This document shows positions 1 to 64,000 of a stretch of 64,000 bases of DNA, one piece after another (the first letter of the stretch is position 1; the number at the start of each line of letters is the position of its first letter). A program made the translations under genes and the position numbers. Under the pieces are notes generated by a model. That model saw only the letters and a program-made list of their open reading frames with translations. It was not told the origin of the DNA and did no database searches. This stretch comes from a virus (lineage: Duplodnaviria > Caudoviricetes): positions 1 through 64,000 of IMG/VR virus record IMGVR_UViG_3300013103_000006; one strand, written 5' to 3'.

Positions 1-84
1 ATTTTCATAAGAAAAAATTCAATTATAAAAATAATTTTTTTTTTTAATTCCATATAAAAAAATTTTAATTTATTTTTTCTCTTT

Positions 85-120
<36 letters not shown>

Positions 121-198
121 GATAACTTCTAACTAAGAGTATTGTTTTTATTTTCTTTGAATATAATAAAAGGCAATCACAACTGTTAAACCGATAGG

Positions 199-249
199 CT
201 TATAAACCTTTCGGCAATTTCCTTGGAGGGCTATCGTAAGGTTTATATA
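199..249. promoter_or_regulatory. divergent pair of archaeal BRE-TATA promoters
   Basis: + strand CGTAAGG-TTTATATA (TATA 242-249); - strand CCGAAAGG-TTTATAAG (complement of 199-214); 12/13 inverted match between 201-213 and 235-247. Confidence 0.55.
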
Positions 250-269
250 CCATGACTTCATTCTGCCGT

Positions 270-491
270 ATATGGTTGGAGTTAGTGATCCACACTAGCT
301 CCAGTAGAAGATAGTTTTCTTCTATTCCACTAGTAAGATTATTACCTCTTAGTGGAGGAGGTAAAACTGACACTCAGCTTTTCAGGAGAAGAAGAGATAT
401 CTGTTGAGCTTCTAACCCAGAAGATACTCTCTTTAATACCCAGAGGATGGGATGATTCTTTCCTGTCCTCTGATTCTTTTTCTTTTTTGTT
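270..491 (+). ncRNA. candidate structured ncRNA or 5' leader
   Basis: Hairpins at 277-303, 305-324, 327-355, 409-423 and 441-472, two with G-U pairs; starts about 25 nt after the TATA box and ends in a U-tract. Confidence 0.45.
441..491 (+). terminator. hairpin plus U-tract terminator
   Basis: 12-bp stem CAGAGGATGGGA/TCCTGTCCTCTG followed by TTCTTTTTCTTTTTTGTT. Confidence 0.6.
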
Positions 492-21416: not shown

Positions 21417-22386
21417 TCAAGACATGAAGATTGGGATTCAATGTAGCTCATATACTACAGCTAGGTGTGGTATCCGAACGTATTCTGTTAGACTAAATGA
21501 GGCACTAAAGAAAAAAGGAATAGATAGTCATATTTTCATAGAAAAGCCTCATAAGGATGTTGATGCGATATTAATCCAATATGAGCCGGGAATATTACCA
21601 CCACAAAAACTTAACTATTTTGTCAGGAAATTTATTGAGCCGCTTGTGATTGTTACAGCTCATCATTCAAGAGACATAGACCAATTCTATCCTATTCTGG
21701 ATGGTGTTGTGTTTCACGATGAGTCACAGATAATTGGTGAGCCATGGGAAGGTCTTTATACTATCATCCCACACCCAGCATTGGTGTTTCCGAGATTAGA
21801 TAAGAAGAAAGTCCGAAAAGAGCTAAAGCTTCCAGTAGATAAAACTATAATAGGAACAGCTGGATTCATAACAGGAACTGGAAAAAAGCTCCCTGTAATA
21901 CTTGAATCACTTCTTCCAAAGATTGATGATTCAATGTTTATATACTTCATCACTTCATTCTGGAAAGCTGGAGATTTAGGAAGACTCAGACAAATTCAAG
22001 AAATAGTAAAACGTAGTGGTAAGGCTAATCAGTTCAGAATAGATACAGATTTCCTATCAGAGAAAGAGCTGAATAAGCGTATGCAAGCTTGTGATTTACT
22101 ATTCTCTTGGAATGACACCTCTATAAACGATAAAGGGTCACAGTCAGGTATAGCTGCTGATATGTATGGCTCATACACTAAGCTAATAGTCAAGGATTCT
22201 CCACATTATAATTTCATAAAAAAACAAGATAAAGTCCTAGTAGGAAGACTGGATGTGGATGATTTCACTGAGGATGTCATTAATGCGGTAAAGAAAGAAG
22301 ATTTGACTGACGTTCCTGACCCAAGTTGGTTGTCGTGGGATAAAATGGTAGATAGATATATTGAATTTATTGAGGAGTTATCATGA
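21394..22386 (+). CDS. GT-B (GT4-like) glycosyltransferase
   Basis: CGIRTYS, HH, IIGTAGFI...K, E.EL..RMQACD, W.KMV..Y. Confidence 0.75.
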   Translation: MKLKIGDNQDMKIGIQCSSYTTARCGIRTYSVRLNEALKKKGIDSHIFIEKPHKDVDAILIQYEPGILPPQKLNYFVRKFIEPLVIVTAHHSRDIDQFYPILDGVVFHDESQIIGEPWEGLYTIIPHPALVFPRLDKKKVRKELKLPVDKTIIGTAGFITGTGKKLPVILESLLPKIDDSMFIYFITSFWKAGDLGRLRQIQEIVKRSGKANQFRIDTDFLSEKELNKRMQACDLLFSWNDTSINDKGSQSGIAADMYGSYTKLIVKDSPHYNFIKKQDKVLVGRLDVDDFTEDVINAVKKEDLTDVPDPSWLSWDKMVDRYIEFIEELS

Positions 22387-24692
22387 GTGGTGAAAGAGTT
22401 CTAATAATATCAGATAAACTTGATGCTCCTACAGGCTTTGGCGTAAATGCTTCAAATATAGCTTGGTGTCTAGCAAAGGAATATGATGTTCATATTTTAG
22501 GAATTCAAGCTACTAGAGATGTCAAAGTTCTTTTAGATTTTGCAGGCGAAGAAAGAGAGGTGATACAGCATAAGAATTTCCCAAGAACACCAGATGTTAA
22601 TACGGAGTTTGGTCAGAGGTCTCTTCCTAAACTATTAAAAGAACTTCAACCAGATTTATTACTAACCATTAATGATATTCAGATGGTTCAGCACGTTCCA
22701 AAGACGTTATTTCCAACACAAATTAATGTAACTGCATTGGATATGCCTTCAAGAAGGTTAAGAAGCAAAGAAGAAATCCTTACTGAGATAGAAGCTAAGA
22801 TTGAGGAATTCAGGGAGAGATACCCACCAATCACCAAATGGTTAATGTATGCTCCAATGGATGGAGATCCACCTATCCCTCAGTGGCTCAATGTGTACTA
22901 TGCAGCAGATGAAGTTGTTGCTATGTCAAAATACGGTAAGCGAATATTTAAAGACTATTTTGATTTGGATGTAGACTATATCTGGCATGCTATTGACACC
23001 GATACGTTCACACCTGAAGAAAAACCTGAATCACTTCAAGGATATTTTGTTGTAGGTGACTATAATAGGAATCAGCCCAGAAAGCAACCATTAAGACTCA
23101 TAGAAGCATTTGCTAAATTTGCTAAGGATAAAGATGATGTAAGACTTTGGATGCAAATGTCATGGACTGACCCCTATGGTTGGCCTTTAGAATATTTCAT
23201 TAGGCATGTGTATAATATCAGCGATAAAACCATCTGGCCATTTAATCCGGATGACTTGAAGAGGGGAGATATCGCCAGAATAGTTGGTTCATTTGATATT
23301 CATGTTTCACCTCATGCCGGAGAGGGATTTGGCTTAACCATGGGAGAGGCTCTTTCAGCTGGAGTGCCGACTATTGCAACTGACTACACCTGCTATTCTG
23401 ATGACACTACTGTGCTAACACCGACAGGTGAAAAGCGTTTTGATGAGTTGTGTGTAGGTGATCTCGTCTATTCATTAAATGAGGAGACTGAGGAATTGGA
23501 AGCGAAGCCGATTACCCACATAGAAGCGAAGGATTGGGATGGAGAGATGATTCATTTTAGCTCGAGATATATAGATCTTCTAGTGACACCTGATCACAAA
23601 ATGGTAGTGAAGAAAAGAAGCACGAAGGGAAAATATACCAATTGGCAACATATAGAAGCTAAGGACATGCTGAATAAAAGCTCGTATAAATTTCCCTTAA
23701 AGGCGAAATATAATGTTACAGCTAGTCAGCCGGATATCAGTGATGATTTATTAACTCTTATTGGGTGGTATATCTCCGAGGGCTTCATACAAAGAGATTA
23801 TAGATGTAAAACTGAAACTATTATTGGCATCTGCGAGCCAGAAGGGAGTAAATACAGGGAAGAAATTATAAACACAATTAAAAAACTAGGTTATAAGCCT
23901 ACAAAAACAAAGAATCAAATAACTTTTCATGCGAAAGATTTAGTTCCATTATTAAAAGAGTGTGGTACCAGAGCTGAAAACAAAAGAATACCTAGAAAAT
24001 ATCTAAATCTAAGCAAAGACAAGCTTCAAGTGCTATTCAATGCACTGATGAAAGGAGACGGAAGCAAATTTGGAGTGTATAATGAATTCAGGAACTACAC
24101 AACTGTGTCAAAAGAACTTGCGACTAATATAATTGAATTATGTATTAAACTAGGTTATGGAGCGAAATACAGAATAGAAGAGCCACAAAAATCAGTGATA
24201 TATAAAGGAACTAATAAAGAAAGGATTATAAAAGGGAACTTCCCGGTCTATAGAGTATCGATAAGATATAAGCTACTGGAGGGATTCTACAGAAATGGAA
24301 AGGGATTACAAAAAACTACTGTAGAGCATTATAAGGGTAAGGTATGGTGTGTCGAGGTTGCTGATAATCATAATCTACTAGTCGGTAGAAATGGCAAATT
24401 TGTATTTTGTGGCAACACCAGTAAAGAGCTAATAGTAGATGGTGAACCAACTCCAAGAGGAATCCTTGTTCCGCCAGCTACTCTCTATTGGGATAAACTT
24501 GATGTAGCGGCAGTCAGAAGAGCATTAATCGATATAGATAAGCTAGTTGATGCTATGAACTTTTATTACTATAACAGGGATGAGCTAGAAAAGCATGGGA
24601 AAAATGCTAGAGATTGGGCGATAAAGAATTTAGATATCCGACGAATAGAAAAGCAATGGCTCAGGAAAGTCAAGGAGGTACTCAATAAATGA
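22383..24692 (+). CDS. GT4 glycosyltransferase containing an intein
   Basis: PTGFG, NRNQPRK, GEGFGL...EALSAGVPTIATDYT / TSKEL. Confidence 0.85.
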   Translation: MSGERVLIISDKLDAPTGFGVNASNIAWCLAKEYDVHILGIQATRDVKVLLDFAGEEREVIQHKNFPRTPDVNTEFGQRSLPKLLKELQPDLLLTINDIQMVQHVPKTLFPTQINVTALDMPSRRLRSKEEILTEIEAKIEEFRERYPPITKWLMYAPMDGDPPIPQWLNVYYAADEVVAMSKYGKRIFKDYFDLDVDYIWHAIDTDTFTPEEKPESLQGYFVVGDYNRNQPRKQPLRLIEAFAKFAKDKDDVRLWMQMSWTDPYGWPLEYFIRHVYNISDKTIWPFNPDDLKRGDIARIVGSFDIHVSPHAGEGFGLTMGEALSAGVPTIATDYTCYSDDTTVLTPTGEKRFDELCVGDLVYSLNEETEELEAKPITHIEAKDWDGEMIHFSSRYIDLLVTPDHKMVVKKRSTKGKYTNWQHIEAKDMLNKSSYKFPLKAKYNVTASQPDISDDLLTLIGWYISEGFIQRDYRCKTETIIGICEPEGSKYREEIINTIKKLGYKPTKTKNQITFHAKDLVPLLKECGTRAENKRIPRKYLNLSKDKLQVLFNALMKGDGSKFGVYNEFRNYTTVSKELATNIIELCIKLGYGAKYRIEEPQKSVIYKGTNKERIIKGNFPVYRVSIRYKLLEGFYRNGKGLQKTTVEHYKGKVWCVEVADNHNLLVGRNGKFVFCGNTSKELIVDGEPTPRGILVPPATLYWDKLDVAAVRRALIDIDKLVDAMNFYYYNRDELEKHGKNARDWAIKNLDIRRIEKQWLRKVKEVLNK
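23391..24416 (+). mobile_element. intein with LAGLIDADG homing endonuclease (342 aa)
   Basis: Starts CYSDDTTVLT, ends VFCGN, +1 Thr; LIGWYISEG and FNALMKGDGS blocks. Confidence 0.9.
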
Positions 24693-55035: not shown

Positions 55036-56010
55036 TTACTTTGCTAGTATTCTAACTCCTGCGTCGTCTCTGAGCAAACCAACACCGAATCTCATTTTGA
55101 CTATTATGCCCTCAAGGTCGTGAATTGGATCATCATATCTCTCGACTGTTATGTCGTCCCTCATGGCTATGATTGCAGTGTTCTGTGAATCAAGTACAAG
55201 AGCATTGTAGTGACCAGAGGCATCGGTGCCATCCCAAGACTGAGTCACGTCATCAGATGTAGAGACTGATAGGGTGTATGGCTTTAGTCCTAGTAGTCTG
55301 GTTCCGATGCTACCTTCTCTTAGACCAGCCTCAGTACCAGCGTATGATACATAGACTAAATTGGAATCAGATAGCAGATATGCCTCAGCTGATGGATGTG
55401 TAATGAGTGTATCGGGTATCCAGTTCTTCTCTTTGACTCGTCCAATTGCTGTTGCGATATCAGTTACCGCAAGATGAGTTCCTGCTGGATCGACATCGGT
55501 GCATCCATCAAGCTCAGATAGAAGTTTGTCTAGTACTCTCTGGTTTAGAGTGTTCTCCATTACGTAACCAGCCCATTTTAGCTGATGCTCGACTACATTG
55601 AATAAGCCATCGTCAATCATCTCTTTGGTTATGAGACCTCTAAGGCCGTATTTCTCAACCTCAACGTCAACCTTTGAATAGGATGCTTCATCGATTGGGA
55701 ATGCACCGCCCTCAGCAACTTTAGAAGCATATGCTCCAGAAGAACCAAGAACGAATCTTACTTTATATGAATCAGTCTTCTGGATTGGGAATACGTCTCT
55801 TACACAACGTGCTGGCTGTGCCCCCTCATAAATTTTCTTTATGACCTCTTCCTGTAAGAGAGTAGTTTCGTTGATATCCTCAGCCTGAAGTAGTGTCTTT
55901 ACAGCCTTCTCACCGACAATCTTTTTAAATCTCTCGGAGTTTAGCATTCTCTTTCTCTCAGAGTTCCCAGCGAATGCATACTCCATTAGTTTTACGAACT
56001 TAGATTCCAT
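55036..56010 (-). CDS. major capsid protein (HK97 fold)
   Basis: 324 aa; V.EGG.FP, V.V.KYG....IT.EMIDD, NQRVL, LLGL; follows protease and scaffold. Confidence 0.85.
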   Translation of the reverse strand: MESKFVKLMEYAFAGNSERKRMLNSERFKKIVGEKAVKTLLQAEDINETTLLQEEVIKKIYEGAQPARCVRDVFPIQKTDSYKVRFVLGSSGAYASKVAEGGAFPIDEASYSKVDVEVEKYGLRGLITKEMIDDGLFNVVEHQLKWAGYVMENTLNQRVLDKLLSELDGCTDVDPAGTHLAVTDIATAIGRVKEKNWIPDTLITHPSAEAYLLSDSNLVYVSYAGTEAGLREGSIGTRLLGLKPYTLSVSTSDDVTQSWDGTDASGHYNALVLDSQNTAIIAMRDDITVERYDDPIHDLEGIIVKMRFGVGLLRDDAGVRILAK

Positions 56011-56069
56011 TTTAACATTAAGCCTATATCAAACATACAACATAAAGACAAATAAACAGGAAGATAGAA

Positions 56070-56447
56070 TCAAACTAGTAAAACTTTACCTGTACCTGGT
56101 AGAGAAGATGGAGCCTCTAATAGTATAGCCATGACTCGCCCAGTTCCATTGGTATCAAGCCATCCTTTGTTATACTTGAGGGTAGTTCCGACTGTATCAG
56201 AGCCAGAGCCTGATATTCTAGCTTTTACAATGTTGCCAGGACCCCATATCATTACCATGTCTCCGTCGGAAGCATCAGTAGCAGCAATACCAATACCGTT
56301 TGCTGAGGACGACGCTGGGACATAAACCTTCATGGAATCTACTGGAACTACAGCCTGACCTGCAGATATAGAGCCAGAAGCAGTGAAGGAATACATCCCA
56401 CCCTCTGGCTGAATCTCAATTGGCTGAGTTGGAGATGTAAATGCCAT
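56070..56447 (-). CDS. head decoration/cement protein (DUF2190-like)
   Basis: A.G.ISAGQAV, GIA..DA..GD.V, G.V..LLE. Confidence 0.6.
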   Translation of the reverse strand: MAFTSPTQPIEIQPEGGMYSFTASGSISAGQAVVPVDSMKVYVPASSSANGIGIAATDASDGDMVMIWGPGNIVKARISGSGSDTVGTTLKYNKGWLDTNGTGRVMAILLEAPSSLPGTGKVLLV

Positions 56448-56496
56448 ATTTTCTCATCACCTATATCTATAAGACATAAAGACCTTAAATTTCACA

Positions 56497-57195
56497 TTAT
56501 TCAATGAGTTTCACTTCGCCTCTAGAAATAATAACAGTTGGGGAATCGTCACTGTCATCTTCAGGGGTTTCGTCAGATTTCTCTATGATAGTTTTCTCCT
56601 CTCCGCTAGCAGTTTCTAAAGCCTTTAATCTCTCATCAAGAGCTTTAAGTACATCGTCTTTCGCTTTAGTGGCAACACTGAGCTCCTCAATGGTCTTAGA
56701 GGCATTAGATAATTCAGATATCTTCTCCCAAAGAGCATCGATTGCATTAACCACCATTTCTGGCCACTCAGCTTTTGCTGGATATGGATATTTTGTCGGG
56801 TAGGGATAGCTAGTTGGCATTGGATATGGATATGGGTAACCCGCTCTACGCACATTTGCTAGCATCTCAAGAACTGCATCCAGCTCCCCCTTTATCTTTT
56901 CATCCTTGACTTTTTTCTTAATCTTTTCTACCGCATTTGTTATCGCTCCTATCAAGCCCCCATTAGCCTTTTCTTCCTCCTCTGATTTCTTTTCTTCCTC
57001 CTCTTCTTCCTCCTCTTCCCCTGGCTCCTCGCATTTACTCTCTTCCTCTTTCTTCTCAACAAGAGTAGAAACTACCTTTTCAAGGGCTTCAAGTTTACGT
57101 TCGAGAGCTTCTAGTTTAAGTTCAACGGAATTATCTTCGTTGCTCTCTTCGATGGTTTCTACCTCTGTTGGCTCAACATCCTCATATTCTGTCAT
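56497..57195 (-). CDS. scaffolding protein
   Basis: Acidic coiled-coil between protease and capsid; YPYP repeats. Confidence 0.65.
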   Translation of the reverse strand: MTEYEDVEPTEVETIEESNEDNSVELKLEALERKLEALEKVVSTLVEKKEEESKCEEPGEEEEEEEEEKKSEEEEKANGGLIGAITNAVEKIKKKVKDEKIKGELDAVLEMLANVRRAGYPYPYPMPTSYPYPTKYPYPAKAEWPEMVVNAIDALWEKISELSNASKTIEELSVATKAKDDVLKALDERLKALETASGEEKTIIEKSDETPEDDSDDSPTVIISRGEVKLIE

Positions 57196-57201
57196 ATACC
57201 T

Positions 57202-58134
57202 CTATGCTATGTCTTCACATTTATTACATTTAGACAAGATTATAAAACCTGATTTTGGATTAACAGGAAGTTTACAAACAGATACCTCAAATATATTTAA
57301 CTTATCTATTACATTATGGCAAACTTTCCCATCGCAAACATATTTAGAAGATAACACTTCAGCTGCTATTGAAAAGCCATTATATTCACCTGATAAAATC
57401 TTTTCCCACACCTCATTAGCAATCTTCAAATCACTTCTTATTTCTGCAACTATGAACAATCCTTTATCGTCGACGTGAGTTGTGAATCCGTTATATTCAG
57501 GCAATATCTTTCCTATTTGGATATTCCTATGAACCACCATTAGGTTAGCATAAGATGGATCAGATAATAACGTTTGAATTCCCTCTTTAAGAGCCTCTAG
57601 AGTAATCAAATCATTCGATTTATCAGGAATAGCCACATTAGCATAACCTGCTATTATTCTCTTGCCTCCTTCTTTTTCAGCTTTACTTACTATCTTGAGA
57701 TTGCCATACATTTTGAATGGATGGGACATCTGAATTGTTTTAGGTGGGTTTATTCGTTCAACTTTAAGAGCATACAGAGGAATATAAGAGGTATAAGGTT
57801 TGGTGGATTTGTAGTGTAATTGAAGATATAAAGGAGTATCGTCATATGGTATGCCAAATTCCCCAGCCATTTGTCTGAATAATCTAAAGTCAATCGCCTC
57901 CCTAATTTCTGGAGGTAAACTAGCTCCTTCAATGACTAAATCTATATCATTACCCTCTCCATGAACGACAGTAGAACCAACTAGAGATATAAACGGTTTC
58001 ATGATATAAAAGTCTTTAAATTTAGATAATATGTCATCAAGCTTAAATCTCTTGCCTGTCAATCTACCAGATGGTGGGACTTGAGCAAGTTCTCCTTTTC
58101 TAGTGAGCTTAATTATTTCAGGTAAGTCCATCAT
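57202..58134 (-). CDS. Pol-beta-type nucleotidyltransferase fused to HK97-type prohead protease
   Basis: N-terminal LVGS-x8-DID (G53 S54 D63 D65); C-terminal IAGYA..D...D.I, MVVH..IGK, GFSI, EVSV...P.NP. Confidence 0.8.
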   Translation of the reverse strand: MMDLPEIIKLTRKGELAQVPPSGRLTGKRFKLDDILSKFKDFYIMKPFISLVGSTVVHGEGNDIDLVIEGASLPPEIREAIDFRLFRQMAGEFGIPYDDTPLYLQLHYKSTKPYTSYIPLYALKVERINPPKTIQMSHPFKMYGNLKIVSKAEKEGGKRIIAGYANVAIPDKSNDLITLEALKEGIQTLLSDPSYANLMVVHRNIQIGKILPEYNGFTTHVDDKGLFIVAEIRSDLKIANEVWEKILSGEYNGFSIAAEVLSSKYVCDGKVCHNVIDKLNIFEVSVCKLPVNPKSGFIILSKCNKCEDIA

Positions 58135-58370
58135 GCTATCATCAGGAAATACTTTACTAAGAGGAATACAAGACCAAACAAGACAGCTCCAACAAACCAG
58201 AATAACAGTTTGAATTTACCATCAAGATAAGCCAGTTCCCTTGATAATTCAGTTGTGATTGATTCTAGTCGCTCTATACGCTTTAATAGCTCGTCATCAT
58301 TTTTATTTAGACTCTTCAGTGTGGAGATAATCTCCCCAAGCATTAGTCTCAGGTCTTCCATAAGTATCAA
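58131..58370 (-). CDS. coiled-coil plus C-terminal TM protein
   Basis: LLFWFVGAVLFGLVFLLV C-terminal anchor. Confidence 0.6.
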   Translation of the reverse strand: MILMEDLRLMLGEIISTLKSLNKNDDELLKRIERLESITTELSRELAYLDGKFKLLFWFVGAVLFGLVFLLVKYFLMIA

Positions 58371-58453: not shown

Positions 58454-60667
58454 TTAACATTTCAGAGATTGCTTGAATTTCTTAATAGATTCTGCTCTAT
58501 AAGCTTCTCTACCAAATTTCTCAAGCTTCCCAGCAGGAATTGGCCAATAGTGTCCTGTATCAGCATGCATAATAGAATCCATTGGATAAGGGTCATCTAT
58601 TGCTTTCCAAACCCACCATCTTTTATCCTTTCCAGCCTTGAATGCTCTGATTATGAACCTGCCATTAAACAGCTCTTTGTTTTTATTAGGAAGTGATTCT
58701 GATGGATAAGAGAAGTATTCATGGTTGTCCTCACGCTGAACTCCAGCTTTAACAGAGCCAAGCCATATAGCACACATGTATGCCCATTTATATGGTGTAG
58801 AGTTTTTAACTAAATGATTTAAGACTACAAAATTATGATCATCGGCAACAGCGATATCGTAGATATGAATTGAACCTCCATGTTCTTTCTCTGTTCTTAG
58901 AACAGGAATATAGTAGTATCTATCATCCTCATCTACTAATCTAGGCTTCTTCTCTCGTTTAAGTGGCCAGCTTATATTATATATTTTATATCGAGAGTCC
59001 TTCATATAGCTTTTTATAGACGGCAACTCGCCTAATGTAAGTAGAAGCAAGAAGATTTGACCAGCGAGTCTTCTAGATTCTGTAGCATACTGAATTCTCC
59101 TATGATTTACATAGCCATCACTTTGGATGAGACCATCTAGGAGCTTACATTTCAAAGCATCAGGAAGATAGTAAATCCATTGAGGAAGAATCTTATGCTT
59201 TCTACCTCCGTAGTGAACATAACAATTATTACAAAGCCAATGAGCAAGACCACGATCTATAAATCTTAGCGATATATAATTTCCGTTCGGATTAACTATC
59301 CTTGTAACATGAGAAATTCCGAATATTGATTTCACCAAAAATTCAAGGCAATCTGCTTCATCTTCGTTAGCACAGTCAAGAGATATCTGACCTTTGTCGT
59401 GGTTTAATACCGACCCGTCGCCAGCAAAGAAACCTAAGAAGAACATGAAATCTTCCTCGACAGCTATTTTCTTCTCGTATCCTGGCTCGATAGTGAGTAT
59501 AATCTCCCTTGGGTATTCTTTCTCTTCTAGGTGAGGCTTAGGCAATAACAATTTATCGTTTTGGGTTATTGTTTCTGATTCTTTCAAACCATCTTTAGTA
59601 TAAATATTGTGATGATAATATATAGTTTTGAAGCCAAACATAGGTGTTAGAGAAAATCGGTTATGAACAATTCCTCTATCCCAGATTTTTAGGATTGGTC
59701 GGAATCTACCGCATCCAGTATAAACTAAATCTCCTTCTTTGAGCTCATCGACAAATTTATAGCCTTCAGGAGTCAACACTAAATCATGAGCAGCGACACA
59801 TCCAACCTCTCCAGGAGGAATCATATAAGACTTATCAAATAAGACATATTGCTTGATTAATTTAGCATCTTCTCTTGTAAGTATTGGTTCTTTCTTCTCA
59901 GCTTTAACCACACGTTCTGGCTCTTCTCCGCTGGGCTTGACTATAGCGAGCCCTTTACTCACATTACCTGTTTTCTCGTCTGTTCTTCCAATAATAGTAT
60001 CAAAGTAATCTTTGACGTGATCCTGAGTAATCACCCATTGAACGAATGCGTTTTTAAATTTAAGCCTCCAGTCCAAATGTATGCTATGACCATCTACTAA
60101 ATCCTCAAATGATATCTTGCCTAATTTATATTTTTTGACATCATCTGGTTCTAGTCCTCTTATATGCATCTGAGCCCAAGCTCTATCTGCTTCATCATAG
60201 TTGACATAACATATCTTTGGAAGAGGTTTCATCTCTTGTCTGAGTTCCTTATAGATATCTTCTGGAATTCTGTGTTTCTCAACCCAAGAGCAAACATCTT
60301 CTTTTGTGATAGCTTTCTTTAGATGTCGTTTCCATGTATTTGGGAATTCAGTAGAATGATATAACTCTGTTTCATCATAGATAGTAAGTGGCTGGAGATT
60401 ATTAATTGAATTCTGAAGTTTTACGGTGCCATCATCATGCTCAACCAAATATAACTCTTTACTCAGTGCATTTGTGAGCGTCTTTGCTTTTGTTTCTAGT
60501 TCGTTGATTCGCTCTTTATAGGAAAGAATCTCATTCTTAAATTCTTCTTCGGTTTTCTTTAGCTCATTCTCTTTAGACTTAAGAGCTGACTCTAATTCTT
60601 TGATTTTATTTTCAAGTTCAGCTTTACGCTTATTATATTCAGTAAGTAATTCAGTCTTTAAATCCAT
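58454..60667 (-). CDS. coiled-coil plus LigD-type 3'-phosphoesterase domain protein, intein-containing
   Basis: AQMH, HLDWRL, LA, IPPGEVG/S, IW.G, NGRFIIR, WWVWK match the LigD PE motif series. Confidence 0.65.
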   Translation of the reverse strand: MDLKTELLTEYNKRKAELENKIKELESALKSKENELKKTEEEFKNEILSYKERINELETKAKTLTNALSKELYLVEHDDGTVKLQNSINNLQPLTIYDETELYHSTEFPNTWKRHLKKAITKEDVCSWVEKHRIPEDIYKELRQEMKPLPKICYVNYDEADRAWAQMHIRGLEPDDVKKYKLGKISFEDLVDGHSIHLDWRLKFKNAFVQWVITQDHVKDYFDTIIGRTDEKTGNVSKGLAIVKPSGEEPERVVKAEKKEPILTREDAKLIKQYVLFDKSYMIPPGEVGCVAAHDLVLTPEGYKFVDELKEGDLVYTGCGRFRPILKIWDRGIVHNRFSLTPMFGFKTIYYHHNIYTKDGLKESETITQNDKLLLPKPHLEEKEYPREIILTIEPGYEKKIAVEEDFMFFLGFFAGDGSVLNHDKGQISLDCANEDEADCLEFLVKSIFGISHVTRIVNPNGNYISLRFIDRGLAHWLCNNCYVHYGGRKHKILPQWIYYLPDALKCKLLDGLIQSDGYVNHRRIQYATESRRLAGQIFLLLLTLGELPSIKSYMKDSRYKIYNISWPLKREKKPRLVDEDDRYYYIPVLRTEKEHGGSIHIYDIAVADDHNFVVLNHLVKNSTPYKWAYMCAIWLGSVKAGVQREDNHEYFSYPSESLPNKNKELFNGRFIIRAFKAGKDKRWWVWKAIDDPYPMDSIMHADTGHYWPIPAGKLEKFGREAYRAESIKKFKQSLKC
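58802..59800 (-). mobile_element. intein with LAGLIDADG homing endonuclease (333 aa)
   Basis: Starts CVAAHDLVLTPEG, ends HLVKN, +1 Ser; FLGFFAGDGS and LLDGLIQSDG. Confidence 0.9.
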
Positions 60668-63600
60668 TTGTTAATTCCTCAAGCTTCTCATCAGGCAGCA
60701 TCTTAACACACAGCTTAATTACATCATCAAGTTTATCATTAATAGTTGAATCATTAGATGCTAATTTTATACGCTCTAAATCTGTTATGATAGCTGACAA
60801 TGACCTCTCTATATGCTTTATGTCGTCGTGAATATTATTCTCATTAATTGAATTCTTCAAGTCAGTGACAGCAAGCCTAATCATTTCTTTCAGATTATTA
60901 ACTTCACTATTAATATGCTTCTTTCTTTCGAATGTTGATTCTTCAATCAATGAGCTAAGTTTCTCATCTAATTCAGACATCTGCTTTTGTAACTTCTTAA
61001 TCCACTGAAGGAATGTGGATGTTCCGACCCCTCCACCACCACCAGTTTGCCAAGAGCCAGAGCCGTGTTTAGTCGTTAGGTAATTGTCTATCTCCTCTGG
61101 AGTGGTACCAGACCAACTTCCACTTCCGTGAGTAGAAGATAATTGAGCGTCTATATCTTGAGCTGGCTGGCCCGAAAGAGAAGTAAGAGTTCGGGAAGAA
61201 TAATTCCAAATATCAGAAGGCGTGCTACCTGTCCAAGCACCTGAACCATGACTAAGTGATAGCTTATCATCAATATCTTGAGCTGGTTGACCAGCAAGAG
61301 ATGTGAGCGTTCTGTTTGAATAACTCCAAACATCAGCAGGAGAAGTGCCTTCCCAACTGCCTGAACCGTGAGTAGAGGAAAGTTTATCATCAATGTCCTG
61401 TGCTGGTTGGCCTGATAGTGAGGTTAATGTTCTAGTTGCATAAGACCAGACATCGGCCGGGCTTGTGCCTTCCCAGCCACCGTTTCCATGTGTTCCGCTT
61501 AACTGTGTGTCCACCTGGCTTGGAATGTTTGCAACCTCCGAGTGTGTTGAATACCAGTCGTCTTCATTTAAAACATTCACAATAACAGAGTCCTTGGTGA
61601 CATAGTTTTCAACATAACACTCAATTATGTAAAGCCCAGATTCTGTAGGCGTCCAGTCATAGTAATAATATCTTGTGCTACCGATTTTCGTCATGTCCGC
61701 TCCCGTCACTACGGATGTCCCATCCTGCTTGTATATGTTTATCCTAACCGTGTGCGGATTCTCCGCCTCCATCGAGTATATTATCCTCTCCGTTGCGTTC
61801 ACTTTGATATGCTTGTATCTCGGCGTCACTATTCCCGTGTGCTCAGTCAGTAGCCTTCCTATTGTCGAAGTCTCGGACAGGGCCGTGATTGCCTGACTCC
61901 AGATTTCGAGTGAAGTTATGACTGGGAACACAGCAGGTGGGTTCGCGGGTTGCCCATTTATCCAAACCTCGTGACTCCTGTAGTCTACGCTCTCTGGCCA
62001 CGAGTAACTGTCATCATCGATGTAGACATAGGGATTCGTCCCGTCCGATTTCACCTTGATGTGAATCGTAGCGTTCCCGTCCGATGTCGGAGTCCCTACC
62101 ACTATGAAGGGTATCCATTGGTCGGCGTAGGAACTTCCAGGATGCGTCCACTTGGCGGTAGGTTCTGAAGTGTAGTCGATTCCCAAACCCGAAAGGTAAA
62201 TTTCAGGAGCGGAGACATCTGTTCCAGCGAAATAGTTTGAACTCACATAAATGTATCCCAGATAATACACGGGCTTGTTGGTCTTGCAACCAGTCAGAGT
62301 AATCGTGTAGGAATCGAAGTCCTCGCCAGAGACCTGTGGCTCCAATCGTAAGGCATAGTTATACCCTCCTGCGGAACGGTAAGTGGCGTCGTCCGCTCCG
62401 GTATAGTTTCCAGTCCTATGAACTGCTCCATACTTGTAAATGATCCAGTCGTTATTTTCAATTCCATTTCTCTTTGTAAATCTTATCCTTGTTGCATCCA
62501 ACCAGTCTTCTCTATAAACAGTATACACTTCAGTGGTTATGTTTGTATACACTATATTGTGATACCAGTCTGTGCAACCATCGTCTATGTCAATCTGGAA
62601 AAGAGTAAAAGCGTTTTCAATCGTGATATCATGGATGTAATTGTTCTGCGAAATTATATCACCAGCATAGTAGAAGCAACCTTGAAGTGTCTGAGTGGTT
62701 GCTGAACTGTTGCTGTCATAGTAAATGTTTTTCATCTCTACATTGTAAATCTCGTTGTCACTGCTTCCAGAAAGAAAAATACCATACCTTGTATTGAAGA
62801 TTGTCCCGTTGTACGCTATGTTTTTGGATGAAAGATAGAAGTAAAGCCCAAACTGTCCCTGTATCCAGAAGTCAGAGAGTGTGTTCTCGTTTGACTGGGA
62901 AAACTGAACTGTATAGTACTCGACAATTCCAACAACTTCAGTGATTGTAAATCCTTTGCTTTTGTAAAGAATGTAACTGCCTTCTCCCCAACTCCAGGAG
63001 GAAGTTTTACTGTCACAAATTGCAACTTTTTCCAGATGTCCGTTTCTTCTACTTCTTATATAAAAATACTTACAATTATCCACCAATACTCCCTTCAAAA
63101 TGTCTGTATGTGGGTATTCTGAAATGGGGATTTTTGGATTAAACCCTTCAAAGTAGGCAGGATAACGCATATAAGAATATCTAACCCAATACGCTCTCCA
63201 CCATCTCATGTAATAAATGTATGTATCTGCACGAGAATCTGTAGAAGAAATTTCATCACCATGAATTAAAACATTTCTCCGTACCAACAGAACCCTACCA
63301 CCAGCATCCCTCGGGTAAGATAAATTAGATGTAAGAGTGATCGTCGTTTCATCATTTCCCGCATCGTAAGACAAAGCAGAAATTTCATAATATTTATGAT
63401 CCCGGGAATAATCATTGTAATGTCTCGTCGCAGAATACTTTGCTCCTCCAATTCTTATCCTGTCTCCAACTTTCCACTCAGCTGTAACATCTCCTTCCAC
63501 AACAATTTGATTGCTACCAGCAGACGCATCGTACTTCAAAACAGCATACCATTTCTCAATGGGAGATCCGTAATGCTCAATTTTCATCCAAGAGGAACGG

Positions 63601-64000
63601 TAAGCATATATCCCCGCTCTTCTGCTCGTCCCTTCGCAATTGAAAAACCAGTTGACAGTTTTATCAGCTGGAATTGGATTTTCTTCACTATCGCCAATCT
63701 GCCAAGCAACTCTGTCCCCACCAGATACATACATTCTCCCTTTTATTTCAACTGTAATATCAGAAGTTATGCTTGAGGGAACATACAATCTCCCTATTGA
63801 AGTTATCCACAAACTCCCTTTGTTGTTGTAACTATCTAGCCTATCTTTTGAAGGTGAAGTAGGTATGGTCACGTAACCAACAGTCCAGTCCTGATCTATC
63901 ACCAGCTCGTCAGTAATAACAAAAATGTCTGATGATGTCGGAGTACCAGTTGTGTCTGAGTAAATTATTCTGAAAGCATAGTTACTGACATCTGATTGCC
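60651..64000 (-). CDS. very large beta-helix adhesin/fibre-like protein, 5'-truncated by the window edge
   Basis: Frame is open upstream of GTG 63902 to base 64000; beta-helix-like repeats, 40-aa tandem repeats, C-terminal coiled-coil. Confidence 0.7.
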   Translation of the reverse strand, partial: QSDVSNYAFRIIYSDTTGTPTSSDIFVITDELVIDQDWTVGYVTIPTSPSKDRLDSYNNKGSLWITSIGRLYVPSSITSDITVEIKGRMYVSGGDRVAWQIGDSEENPIPADKTVNWFFNCEGTSRRAGIYAYRSSWMKIEHYGSPIEKWYAVLKYDASAGSNQIVVEGDVTAEWKVGDRIRIGGAKYSATRHYNDYSRDHKYYEISALSYDAGNDETTITLTSNLSYPRDAGGRVLLVRRNVLIHGDEISSTDSRADTYIYYMRWWRAYWVRYSYMRYPAYFEGFNPKIPISEYPHTDILKGVLVDNCKYFYIRSRRNGHLEKVAICDSKTSSWSWGEGSYILYKSKGFTITEVVGIVEYYTVQFSQSNENTLSDFWIQGQFGLYFYLSSKNIAYNGTIFNTRYGIFLSGSSDNEIYNVEMKNIYYDSNSSATTQTLQGCFYYAGDIISQNNYIHDITIENAFTLFQIDIDDGCTDWYHNIVYTNITTEVYTVYREDWLDATRIRFTKRNGIENNDWIIYKYGAVHRTGNYTGADDATYRSAGGYNYALRLEPQVSGEDFDSYTITLTGCKTNKPVYYLGYIYVSSNYFAGTDVSAPEIYLSGLGIDYTSEPTAKWTHPGSSYADQWIPFIVVGTPTSDGNATIHIKVKSDGTNPYVYIDDDSYSWPESVDYRSHEVWINGQPANPPAVFPVITSLEIWSQAITALSETSTIGRLLTEHTGIVTPRYKHIKVNATERIIYSMEAENPHTVRINIYKQDGTSVVTGADMTKIGSTRYYYYDWTPTESGLYIIECYVENYVTKDSVIVNVLNEDDWYSTHSEVANIPSQVDTQLSGTHGNGGWEGTSPADVWSYATRTLTSLSGQPAQDIDDKLSSTHGSGSWEGTSPADVWSYSNRTLTSLAGQPAQDIDDKLSLSHGSGAWTGSTPSDIWNYSSRTLTSLSGQPAQDIDAQLSSTHGSGSWSGTTPEEIDNYLTTKHGSGSWQTGGGGGVGTSTFLQWIKKLQKQMSELDEKLSSLIEESTFERKKHINSEVNNLKEMIRLAVTDLKNSINENNIHDDIKHIERSLSAIITDLERIKLASNDSTINDKLDDVIKLCVKMLPDEKLEELTNGFKD
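61050..61517 (-). repeat. 120-nt (40-aa) tandem repeat, about 3.5 copies
   Basis: QDIDDKLSSTHGSGSWEGTSPADVWSYSNRTLTSLAGQPA unit; period seen at 61153/61273/61393. Confidence 0.9.

Follow-up and report, generated by a model that had tools for sequence, protein, structure and literature searches.

We analysed an open reading frame (ORF) on the minus strand of a 64,000-nucleotide stretch of viral DNA (Duplodnaviria; Caudoviricetes; positions 1 to 64,000 of IMG/VR virus record IMGVR_UViG_3300013103_000006), which we refer to as the window. The ORF, at 58454-60667, encodes 737 amino acids: an N-extein of 289 (residues 1-289), an intein of 333 (290-622) and a C-extein of 115 (623-737), giving a spliced extein of 289 + 115 = 404 amino acids. 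Structure modelling indicates that this spliced protein is a remote relative of the 3'-phosphoesterase (PE) domain of LigD. Its family belongs to a conserved viral module together with an MBL-fold nuclease, an ATP-dependent DNA ligase and a small, putatively Pol-beta-type nucleotidyltransferase (NTase). The genes of this module lie between those for the portal and those for scaffold and capsid, and fusions with the prohead protease recur. The features of the gene are the following:

58454..60667, minus strand: the whole ORF (737 amino acids), with a coiled coil, a linker and a PE-like domain split by the intein.
60458..60667, minus strand: N-terminal ~70 residues, a predicted coiled coil whose sole matches were coiled-coil families.
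59801..60190, minus strand: predicted N-terminal part of the PE-like beta-barrel core, residues 160-289 (residues 89-218 of the homologue P0001), placed by the model ranges (89..287/290) and the motif offset.
60164..60172, minus strand: Q166-M-H168, the putative equivalent of Gln40-x-His42 (metal ligand) of LigD PE, from the alignment of PDB entry 3N9B to the model and from family conservation.
60065..60079, minus strand: H197-L-D199-W-R201, the putative equivalent of His48-x-Asp50-x-Arg52 of LigD PE, from the hhalign pairs HIDLR/HYDFR.
58802..59800, minus strand: intein of 333 amino acids, Cys290 to Asn622, within the conserved G[DE]VG|[AS][ST] loop.
58586..58801, minus strand: predicted C-terminal part of the PE-like core, residues 623-694, with the motifs IWLG, GVQRxDxHEYF, NGRFIIR and RWWVWKA.

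The insert has the features of a class 1 intein, namely C290, N622, Ser623 at position +1, an endonuclease domain and precise absence from homologues, with Lys instead of His as its penultimate residue. It carries two LAGLIDADG motifs (residues 411-419 and 509-519) and matches LAGLIDADG_3 above the Pfam cut-off (E 4e-13), with weaker matches to Hint_2 and Intein_splicing. A word-indexed search with the N-extein yielded eleven relatives. The insert is missing in five close homologues (334-377 amino acids, 58-65% identity), in which the junction is continuous; the window sequence GEVG|STPYK corresponds to GEVGSTAYR in P0008, a more distant, intein-free protein. Because the intein-free homologues read through the site, the intein boundaries are fixed exactly. 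The N-terminal coiled coil is shared with P0006 (422 amino acids, 67% identity, no intein), and is missing from P0001, P0002, P0004 and P0005 in the alignment. An earlier note on this DNA, made from the sequence alone, had described a 404-residue extein starting with a coiled coil of about 70 residues; the intein-free homologues bear out the former, and the matches restricted to coiled-coil families the latter. The motifs it had listed are likewise all present in the order given: AQMHIRG (165-171), GHSIHLDWRL (193-202) and SYMIPPGEVG (280-289) in the N-extein, and IWLG (from 634), NGRFIIR (668-674) and RWWVWKA (683-689) in the C-extein. The window contains at least two inteins, the other lying in a GT-B glycosyltransferase gene (22383-24692, plus strand; Hint_2 and Intein_splicing matches).

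The relation to LigD was recognised in an AlphaFold2 model of P0001, which is 64% identical to the window protein over the N-extein; the model, built from a 35-sequence alignment, had a mean pLDDT of 91.2. Its top three Foldseek matches in the PDB were all phosphoesterases of the LigD family (3P43, 3N9B and 3P4H, probability 1.0), so that the model shows the PE beta-barrel fold, and the earlier note's expectation that the extein would match this fold holds for the homologue. The alignment of 3N9B 31..165 to model residues 86..290 places Gln40/His42 on Gln95/His97. We take the metal ligands of LigD PE to be His42, His48 and Asp50, acting with Gln40 and Arg52 (P. aeruginosa numbering; Shuman-lab work). 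On this model, residues 160-289 and 623-694 of the extein form the core, a highly diverged LigD 3'-phosphoesterase barrel that two or three insertions have enlarged. A search of BFVD with the PE-like model gave a single significant match, A0A516LT18 (827 amino acids, E 1.3e-5, probability 1.0), which may be a deposited viral ligase-PE fusion.

An exhaustive profile search collected 95 clusters of this family at 50% identity. We counted conservation over the 84 strongest representatives, using as denominator those that cover each position, and P0001 numbering. Among the 74-80 covering representatives, at least 96% retain each residue of the QxH and HxDxR motifs: Gln95 in 73/74, His97 in 74/75, His126 in 77/80, Asp128 in 78/80 and Arg130 in 78/79. 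Lys173 (76/78), Arg241 (73/73) and Glu246 (69/70) are similarly invariant or nearly so. The window protein retains all the equivalents of the two motifs (Q166, H168, H197, D199 and R201), and model range, hhalign and conservation agree in placing the LigD metal and phosphate ligands at these sequence positions.

Inteins interrupt the domain in this family at no fewer than four distinct points, all of them in conserved motifs. The site G[DE]VG| is used in the window, P0063, P0026 and L023; P0016 carries an intein inside the HxDxR motif itself (HSIH|CDLR), P0041 at GxQR|xD and P0059 at KxL|xVKP. Since inteins favour conserved functional sites, this pattern supports the motifs as the functional centre of the domain; with at least four independent points, the family is also a useful case for the study of intein site preference. 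The intein in L023:5112-7007, at the same site as in the window, belongs to a protein 45% identical to ours over extein and intein. Further inserts were seen in L022:3940-4952 (~1 kb) and in L017/L018:10678-11236 (~0.56 kb).

Relatives are encoded in 23 IMG/VR loci, and their constant partner is a DNA ligase. Upstream of the PE gene lie a terminase, a portal and a protein of ~900 amino acids with MBL-fold and ATP-dependent DNA ligase domains, as in L001 and L006, where this last gene directly precedes the PE gene and runs into it, with an overlap of 4 nt in L001. Elsewhere, ligase protein and PE are joined in a single chain of 955-1400 amino acids. With a profile built from ten ligase-bearing relatives, a ligase domain was found in 31 of the 84 strong representatives, and in 27 of the 35 with 600 amino acids or more (of the remaining eight, five or more owe their length to an intein). 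DNA_ligase_A_M was matched in 16/20 long relatives, and all six ligases checked have the KxDG motif. The relatives thus show the ligase linkage expected of an end-healing and sealing module. The earlier note had envisaged a two-step pair of PE and NTase without a ligase, and in this respect it does not stand, the MBL-fold and ligase protein being the constant partner of the PE, upstream of it or fused. Since the portal of the relatives is a separate gene, we rejected the possibility that the PE-like protein is a portal or another structural head protein. In L006:8614-9990 and L007:7570-8946, a 458-amino acid protein with a weak ATP-grasp match (GARS_A, E 3e-6) stands between the MBL-ligase and PE genes.

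Downstream, the link is with the capsid. The order PE, transmembrane protein, NTase-protease(-scaffold), cement and capsid is conserved in 11 related loci, and in two proteins the neighbours are joined: P0071 (775 amino acids) combines PE, NTase-like and protease domains in a single chain, and P0074 (1021 amino acids) has a ligase in addition. The NTase-protease of the window aligns to the C-terminal parts of both (E 7e-24 and 1e-23, respectively). The co-occurrence of PE, NTase and protease that the earlier note proposed to look for in gene neighbourhoods is therefore found, both as gene order and as fusions. In the relatives, a single ORF of 529-609 amino acids usually encodes both the NTase-protease and the scaffold (e.g. 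L001:11310-13139, with equivalents in L002-L010). In a distant group, the gene that follows the MBL-ligase-PE fusion encodes an XkdF-type protease that is much extended at its N-terminus, in three cases with a D12 adenine methyltransferase; NTase-like signals in these proteins were weak in a small database. The D12 N6-adenine DNA methyltransferase ORFs after the MBL-ligase-PE gene are L020:11549-14704, L023:7044-9767 and L012:11520-13337; those fused to the protease measure 907-1051 amino acids, and the ORF in L012 gave no protease match. The methyltransferase is apparently another enzyme joined to the capsid protease. Two further observations concern the head modules of relatives. A 176-amino acid ORF directly after the portal gene (L001:6477-7007) weakly matches Peptidase_S78 (E 0.0025), and may be a second, degenerate protease-like gene; and in one distant relative a transglutaminase-core protein is encoded between the PE-like and NTase-protease genes (L021:10921-11892).

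In the window, the minus-strand genes around the PE-like gene are arranged in the order beta-helix protein, PE-like protein, 79-amino acid membrane protein, NTase-like/S78 prohead protease, scaffold, cement-like protein and HK97-type capsid protein:

60651..64000, minus strand: upstream gene of at least 1115 amino acids that runs off the window, NosD-like beta-helix with ~40-amino acid HGSGSW...PAQDID repeats and a C-terminal coiled coil.
58131..58370, minus strand: coiled-coil/transmembrane protein of 79 amino acids between the PE and protease genes, also in relatives.
57202..58134, minus strand: NTase-like domain (~residues 27-124) fused to an S78 prohead protease (residues 152-296).
56497-57195, minus strand: scaffold.
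56070-56447, minus strand: cement-like protein.
55036-56010, minus strand: HK97-type major capsid protein, with which the head module spans 55036..57195.

The PE-like gene is co-oriented with the NTase-protease gene and lies two genes upstream of it, as the earlier note had reported. The NTase-like domain shows VGS...DID at residues 52-65 (window 57940-57981), the Pol-beta-type motif sought being hG[GS]x9-13DxD. At 57193-57204 the protease ends in a TAG stop and the scaffold ATG follows 6 nt on, so these are two separate genes. The 79-amino acid protein was found by tblastn at the same position in 8 loci, with 29-36% identity. The upstream gene, which shares 17 nt with the start of the PE gene, takes the slot of the relatives' MBL-ligase gene; it had no homologue among the 23 related loci, and looks like an oddly placed fibre or receptor-binding protein, with three to four ~40-amino acid repeats (…HGSGSWEGTSPADVWSY…LSGQPAQDIDDKLS).

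The virus is uncultivated and tailed, probably with an archaeal host. Its capsid protein is closest to those of haloarchaeal tailed viruses (28-29% identity), and a plus-strand module encodes a RadA-like ATPase, an archaeo-eukaryotic primase (AEP), PolB and ribonucleotide reductase. Close relatives were binned into metagenome-assembled genomes (MAGs) of Thermoplasmata and Planctomycetota from the Guaymas Basin. The window stretch occurs in one marine metagenome run, from which it may derive, and no RNA run is listed with it; a tblastn search of P0001 against 50,697 deposited phage records gave no match.

The spliced PE-like protein probably belongs to a kit for repairing DNA breaks, and this kit may travel inside the virus particle. 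LigD PE converts 3'-phosphate ends to 3'-OH, acting on 3' ribonucleotides and 3' phosphates. In the window protein, His168, His197 and Asp199 would hold the metal, while Arg201 and Gln166 would bind the 3'-terminal phosphate, and the enzyme would convert blocked 3' ends (3'-phosphate, possibly 3'-ribonucleotides) to 3'-OH in a metal-dependent reaction. Trimming would fall to the MBL nuclease, nucleotide addition to the NTase and sealing to the ligase, a LigD-like or short-patch-repair logic carried out with other parts. Fusions and gene position suggest packaging in the capsid: the enzymes might enter the procapsid together with the protease or scaffold and, in the head or right after ejection, heal, fill and seal broken viral DNA before viral gene expression. 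The coiled coil may be a packaging handle, as the earlier note had suggested. On balance, we consider it rather probable that the product is a divergent LigD PE-like enzyme of a ligase/NTase/MBL module that enters the procapsid to heal viral DNA. A broader proposal, which we put forward only tentatively, is that archaeal (and some bacterial) tailed viruses pre-load their capsids with a full set for repairing single-strand breaks or ends (MBL nuclease, LigD-like 3'-phosphoesterase, Pol-beta-type gap filler and ATP-dependent ligase) on the protease or scaffold, perhaps mending damage to the extracellular genome, or damage by host nucleases at entry, before expression.

A number of results weigh against this interpretation. 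The structure model is that of a homologue with 64% identity to the window protein. Pfam, PHROGs and NCBIfam gave no PE or LigD match for the full protein, for each extein or for the intein-free homologues, so that the profile search of the extein against LigD_N/PE on which the earlier note had counted came out negative. Two family profiles (A1 and A2) retrieved nothing relevant from PDB sequences, and a six-frame scan of five related viral records with PF13298 (LigD_N) gave 0 matches at E<=10. The same model recovered LigD in 16 of 41 Planctomycetota genomes; a PF13298 scan of three MAGs gave no match, and LigD_N, sought as a transitive link, was absent from all ten weak tail matches of the representative search. 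When the viral family was compared with a reference alignment (A3) of eight genuine PE domains taken from those Planctomycetota genomes, default hhalign aligned the last strands only (E 0.095), and relaxed hhalign reached E 0.02-0.04, which is not significant; the family has no significant sequence-profile match to LigD_N. The relaxed alignment was collinear, and paired QMH with QKH, HIDLR with HYDFR, IPAGDVGA with IPEGEYGAG, IW with IWD, and NGRFIIR..WWVWK with LKGGFVLVR..NWLLIK, exactly the parallel in motif order that the earlier note had drawn. The catalytic His84 and Tyr88 of LigD PE lie in its VEDHPxxY motif. We did not find a counterpart of His84: the aligned strand, LAIVKPSAEEP, has no His. 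Possible substitutes for His84/Tyr88 are K173 (76/78) and Y210 (61 Y and 12 F of 80), and two hhalign runs disagree in this region. There is no ligase, portal or terminase inside the 64-kb window; the lack of a ligase, already reported in the earlier note, was confirmed by tblastn with six relatives' ligase proteins and by Pfam on ten large early ORFs. It is a property of the window and not of the system, since relatives carry the MBL-ligase protein directly upstream or fused. A search for adjoining DNA with an exact 60-mer taken from the window end had 0 matches in viral contigs and 0 in metagenome contigs. Finally, the genome ends of related records are assigned to the direct-terminal-repeat type, and for this reason cohesive-end sealing is not an obvious need. 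Taken as a whole, the earlier interpretation is partly supported, and, as far as the structure model allows, the family is an unnamed branch of the LigD phosphoesterase superfamily, recognisable by structure and invisible to sequence profiles.

The main rival explanation, which we judge unlikely, is that these are late cytoplasmic enzymes that are co-transcribed with the head genes and never packaged. Their role would be to mend nicks and blocked ends that could otherwise stall the packaging of replicated or concatemeric DNA, and the fusions would reflect co-expression or polyprotein economy. The gene does lie within a late operon, the PE is a polypeptide of its own in the window and in most relatives (39 of the 84 representatives have fewer than 450 amino acids), and the evidence for the enzymes in the virion is indirect. 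However, the repeated in-frame fusion to both S78 and XkdF-type S78_2 proteases, and to the scaffold, is hard to explain without procapsid targeting, and the replication genes, among them those for a RadA-like ATPase, primase and PolB, are grouped apart from the head genes as a module of the opposite strand.

RNA repair and a dead domain are less likely. The kit could mend RNA, such as tRNA cut by host anticodon nucleases, in the manner of T4 Pnkp/Rnl; tRNA healing was an example given in the earlier note. The idea fits the activity of LigD PE on 3' ribonucleotides and 3' phosphates and the weak RNA_ligase and capping-enzyme matches of the ligase domains. We nevertheless regard it as very improbable: DNA_ligase_A_M scores far better in these domains (e.g. 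9e-23 vs 2.5e-5 for RNA_ligase), no 5'-kinase or 2',3'-cyclic phosphodiesterase was seen, and the solved PE relatives come from DNA end-joining systems. The associated ligases, whose best scores are those for DNA ligases, favour DNA over RNA as the substrate. A barrel that is catalytically dead, serving as a DNA-end-binding or structural domain inside the head, would account for the missing His84 equivalent, the large insertions and the absent profile match, and seems to us very improbable as well; at least 96% of covering representatives, across clusters at 50% identity, retain the putative ligands of metal and phosphate, which speaks against it, as do inteins placed exactly in these motifs and the constant pairing of the domain with an intact KxDG ligase.

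The closest known proteins are the stand-alone archaeal PEs, CkoPE (Candidatus Korarchaeum, 3P43), MbaPE (Methanosarcina barkeri, 3P4H) and the Methanocella PE (5DMP). The viral core has ~200 residues, whereas that of archaeal PE has ~120. Unlike archaeal PE, the viral proteins have a helical insert of ~23 residues that separates the two His motifs, another insert of ~30 residues, with a disordered acidic loop, that follows the invariant VKPSAEEP, a ~90-residue N-terminal extension (to which the window protein adds its coiled coil) and a helix at the C-terminus; they also lack a Pfam LigD_N match and a recognisable equivalent of His84, and are encoded in the head module. Bacterial LigD (PE-LIG-POL in P. 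aeruginosa, 3N9B/3N9D/2LJ6; POL-PE-LIG in M. tuberculosis) joins PE and ligase covalently, as do 31 of the 84 viral representatives, and adds a nucleotide-adding domain. LigD and the viral set share the logic by which the 3' end is cleaned, nucleotides are added and the break is sealed. The viral order, MBL-LIG-PE(-NTase-protease), differs from that of LigD, with a putative minimal Pol-beta-type NTase in place of the AEP-type POL and an MBL-fold nuclease in addition; no Ku was seen, and the context is capsid assembly, not cellular non-homologous end joining.

This work defines an unannotated family, whose 95 clusters have no Pfam, NCBIfam or PHROG name, tied to a ligase/NTase/MBL set that is wired into capsid assembly. 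Our literature searches found no paper linking LigD, phosphoesterase, virion and phage, and none that reports a head module with a PE-like domain or with a repair kit; as far as these searches reach, a virion-borne DNA repair system is undescribed. If packaged, the enzymes would constitute a new class of virion cargo, devoted to DNA repair rather than to anti-restriction or transcription. Capsid-packaged enzymes are known from the Dar system of phage P1 and from the internal proteins of T4. Such enzymes and polyvalent proteins (P1 Dar, T4; Iyer et al. 2017, PMC5512222) are encoded beside or fused to head-morphogenesis proteins, as here, and are delivered with the DNA to act before viral expression. 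In our case the prohead protease or the scaffold would be the carrier, compared with MuF in polyvalent proteins, and neither a LigD-type PE nor a DNA-ligase module is listed among the latter (Iyer et al. 2017, PMC5512222). Magroviruses, whose replisome set and halovirus-like capsid protein are shared with the window, carry an ATP-dependent DNA ligase in the structural module, and the paper that describes them mentions no PE-like domain, NTase-protease fusion or packaging hypothesis (Philosof et al. 2017, PMC5434244). Packaging of the enzymes would also explain this puzzling "structural-module ligase", should it belong to the same family.

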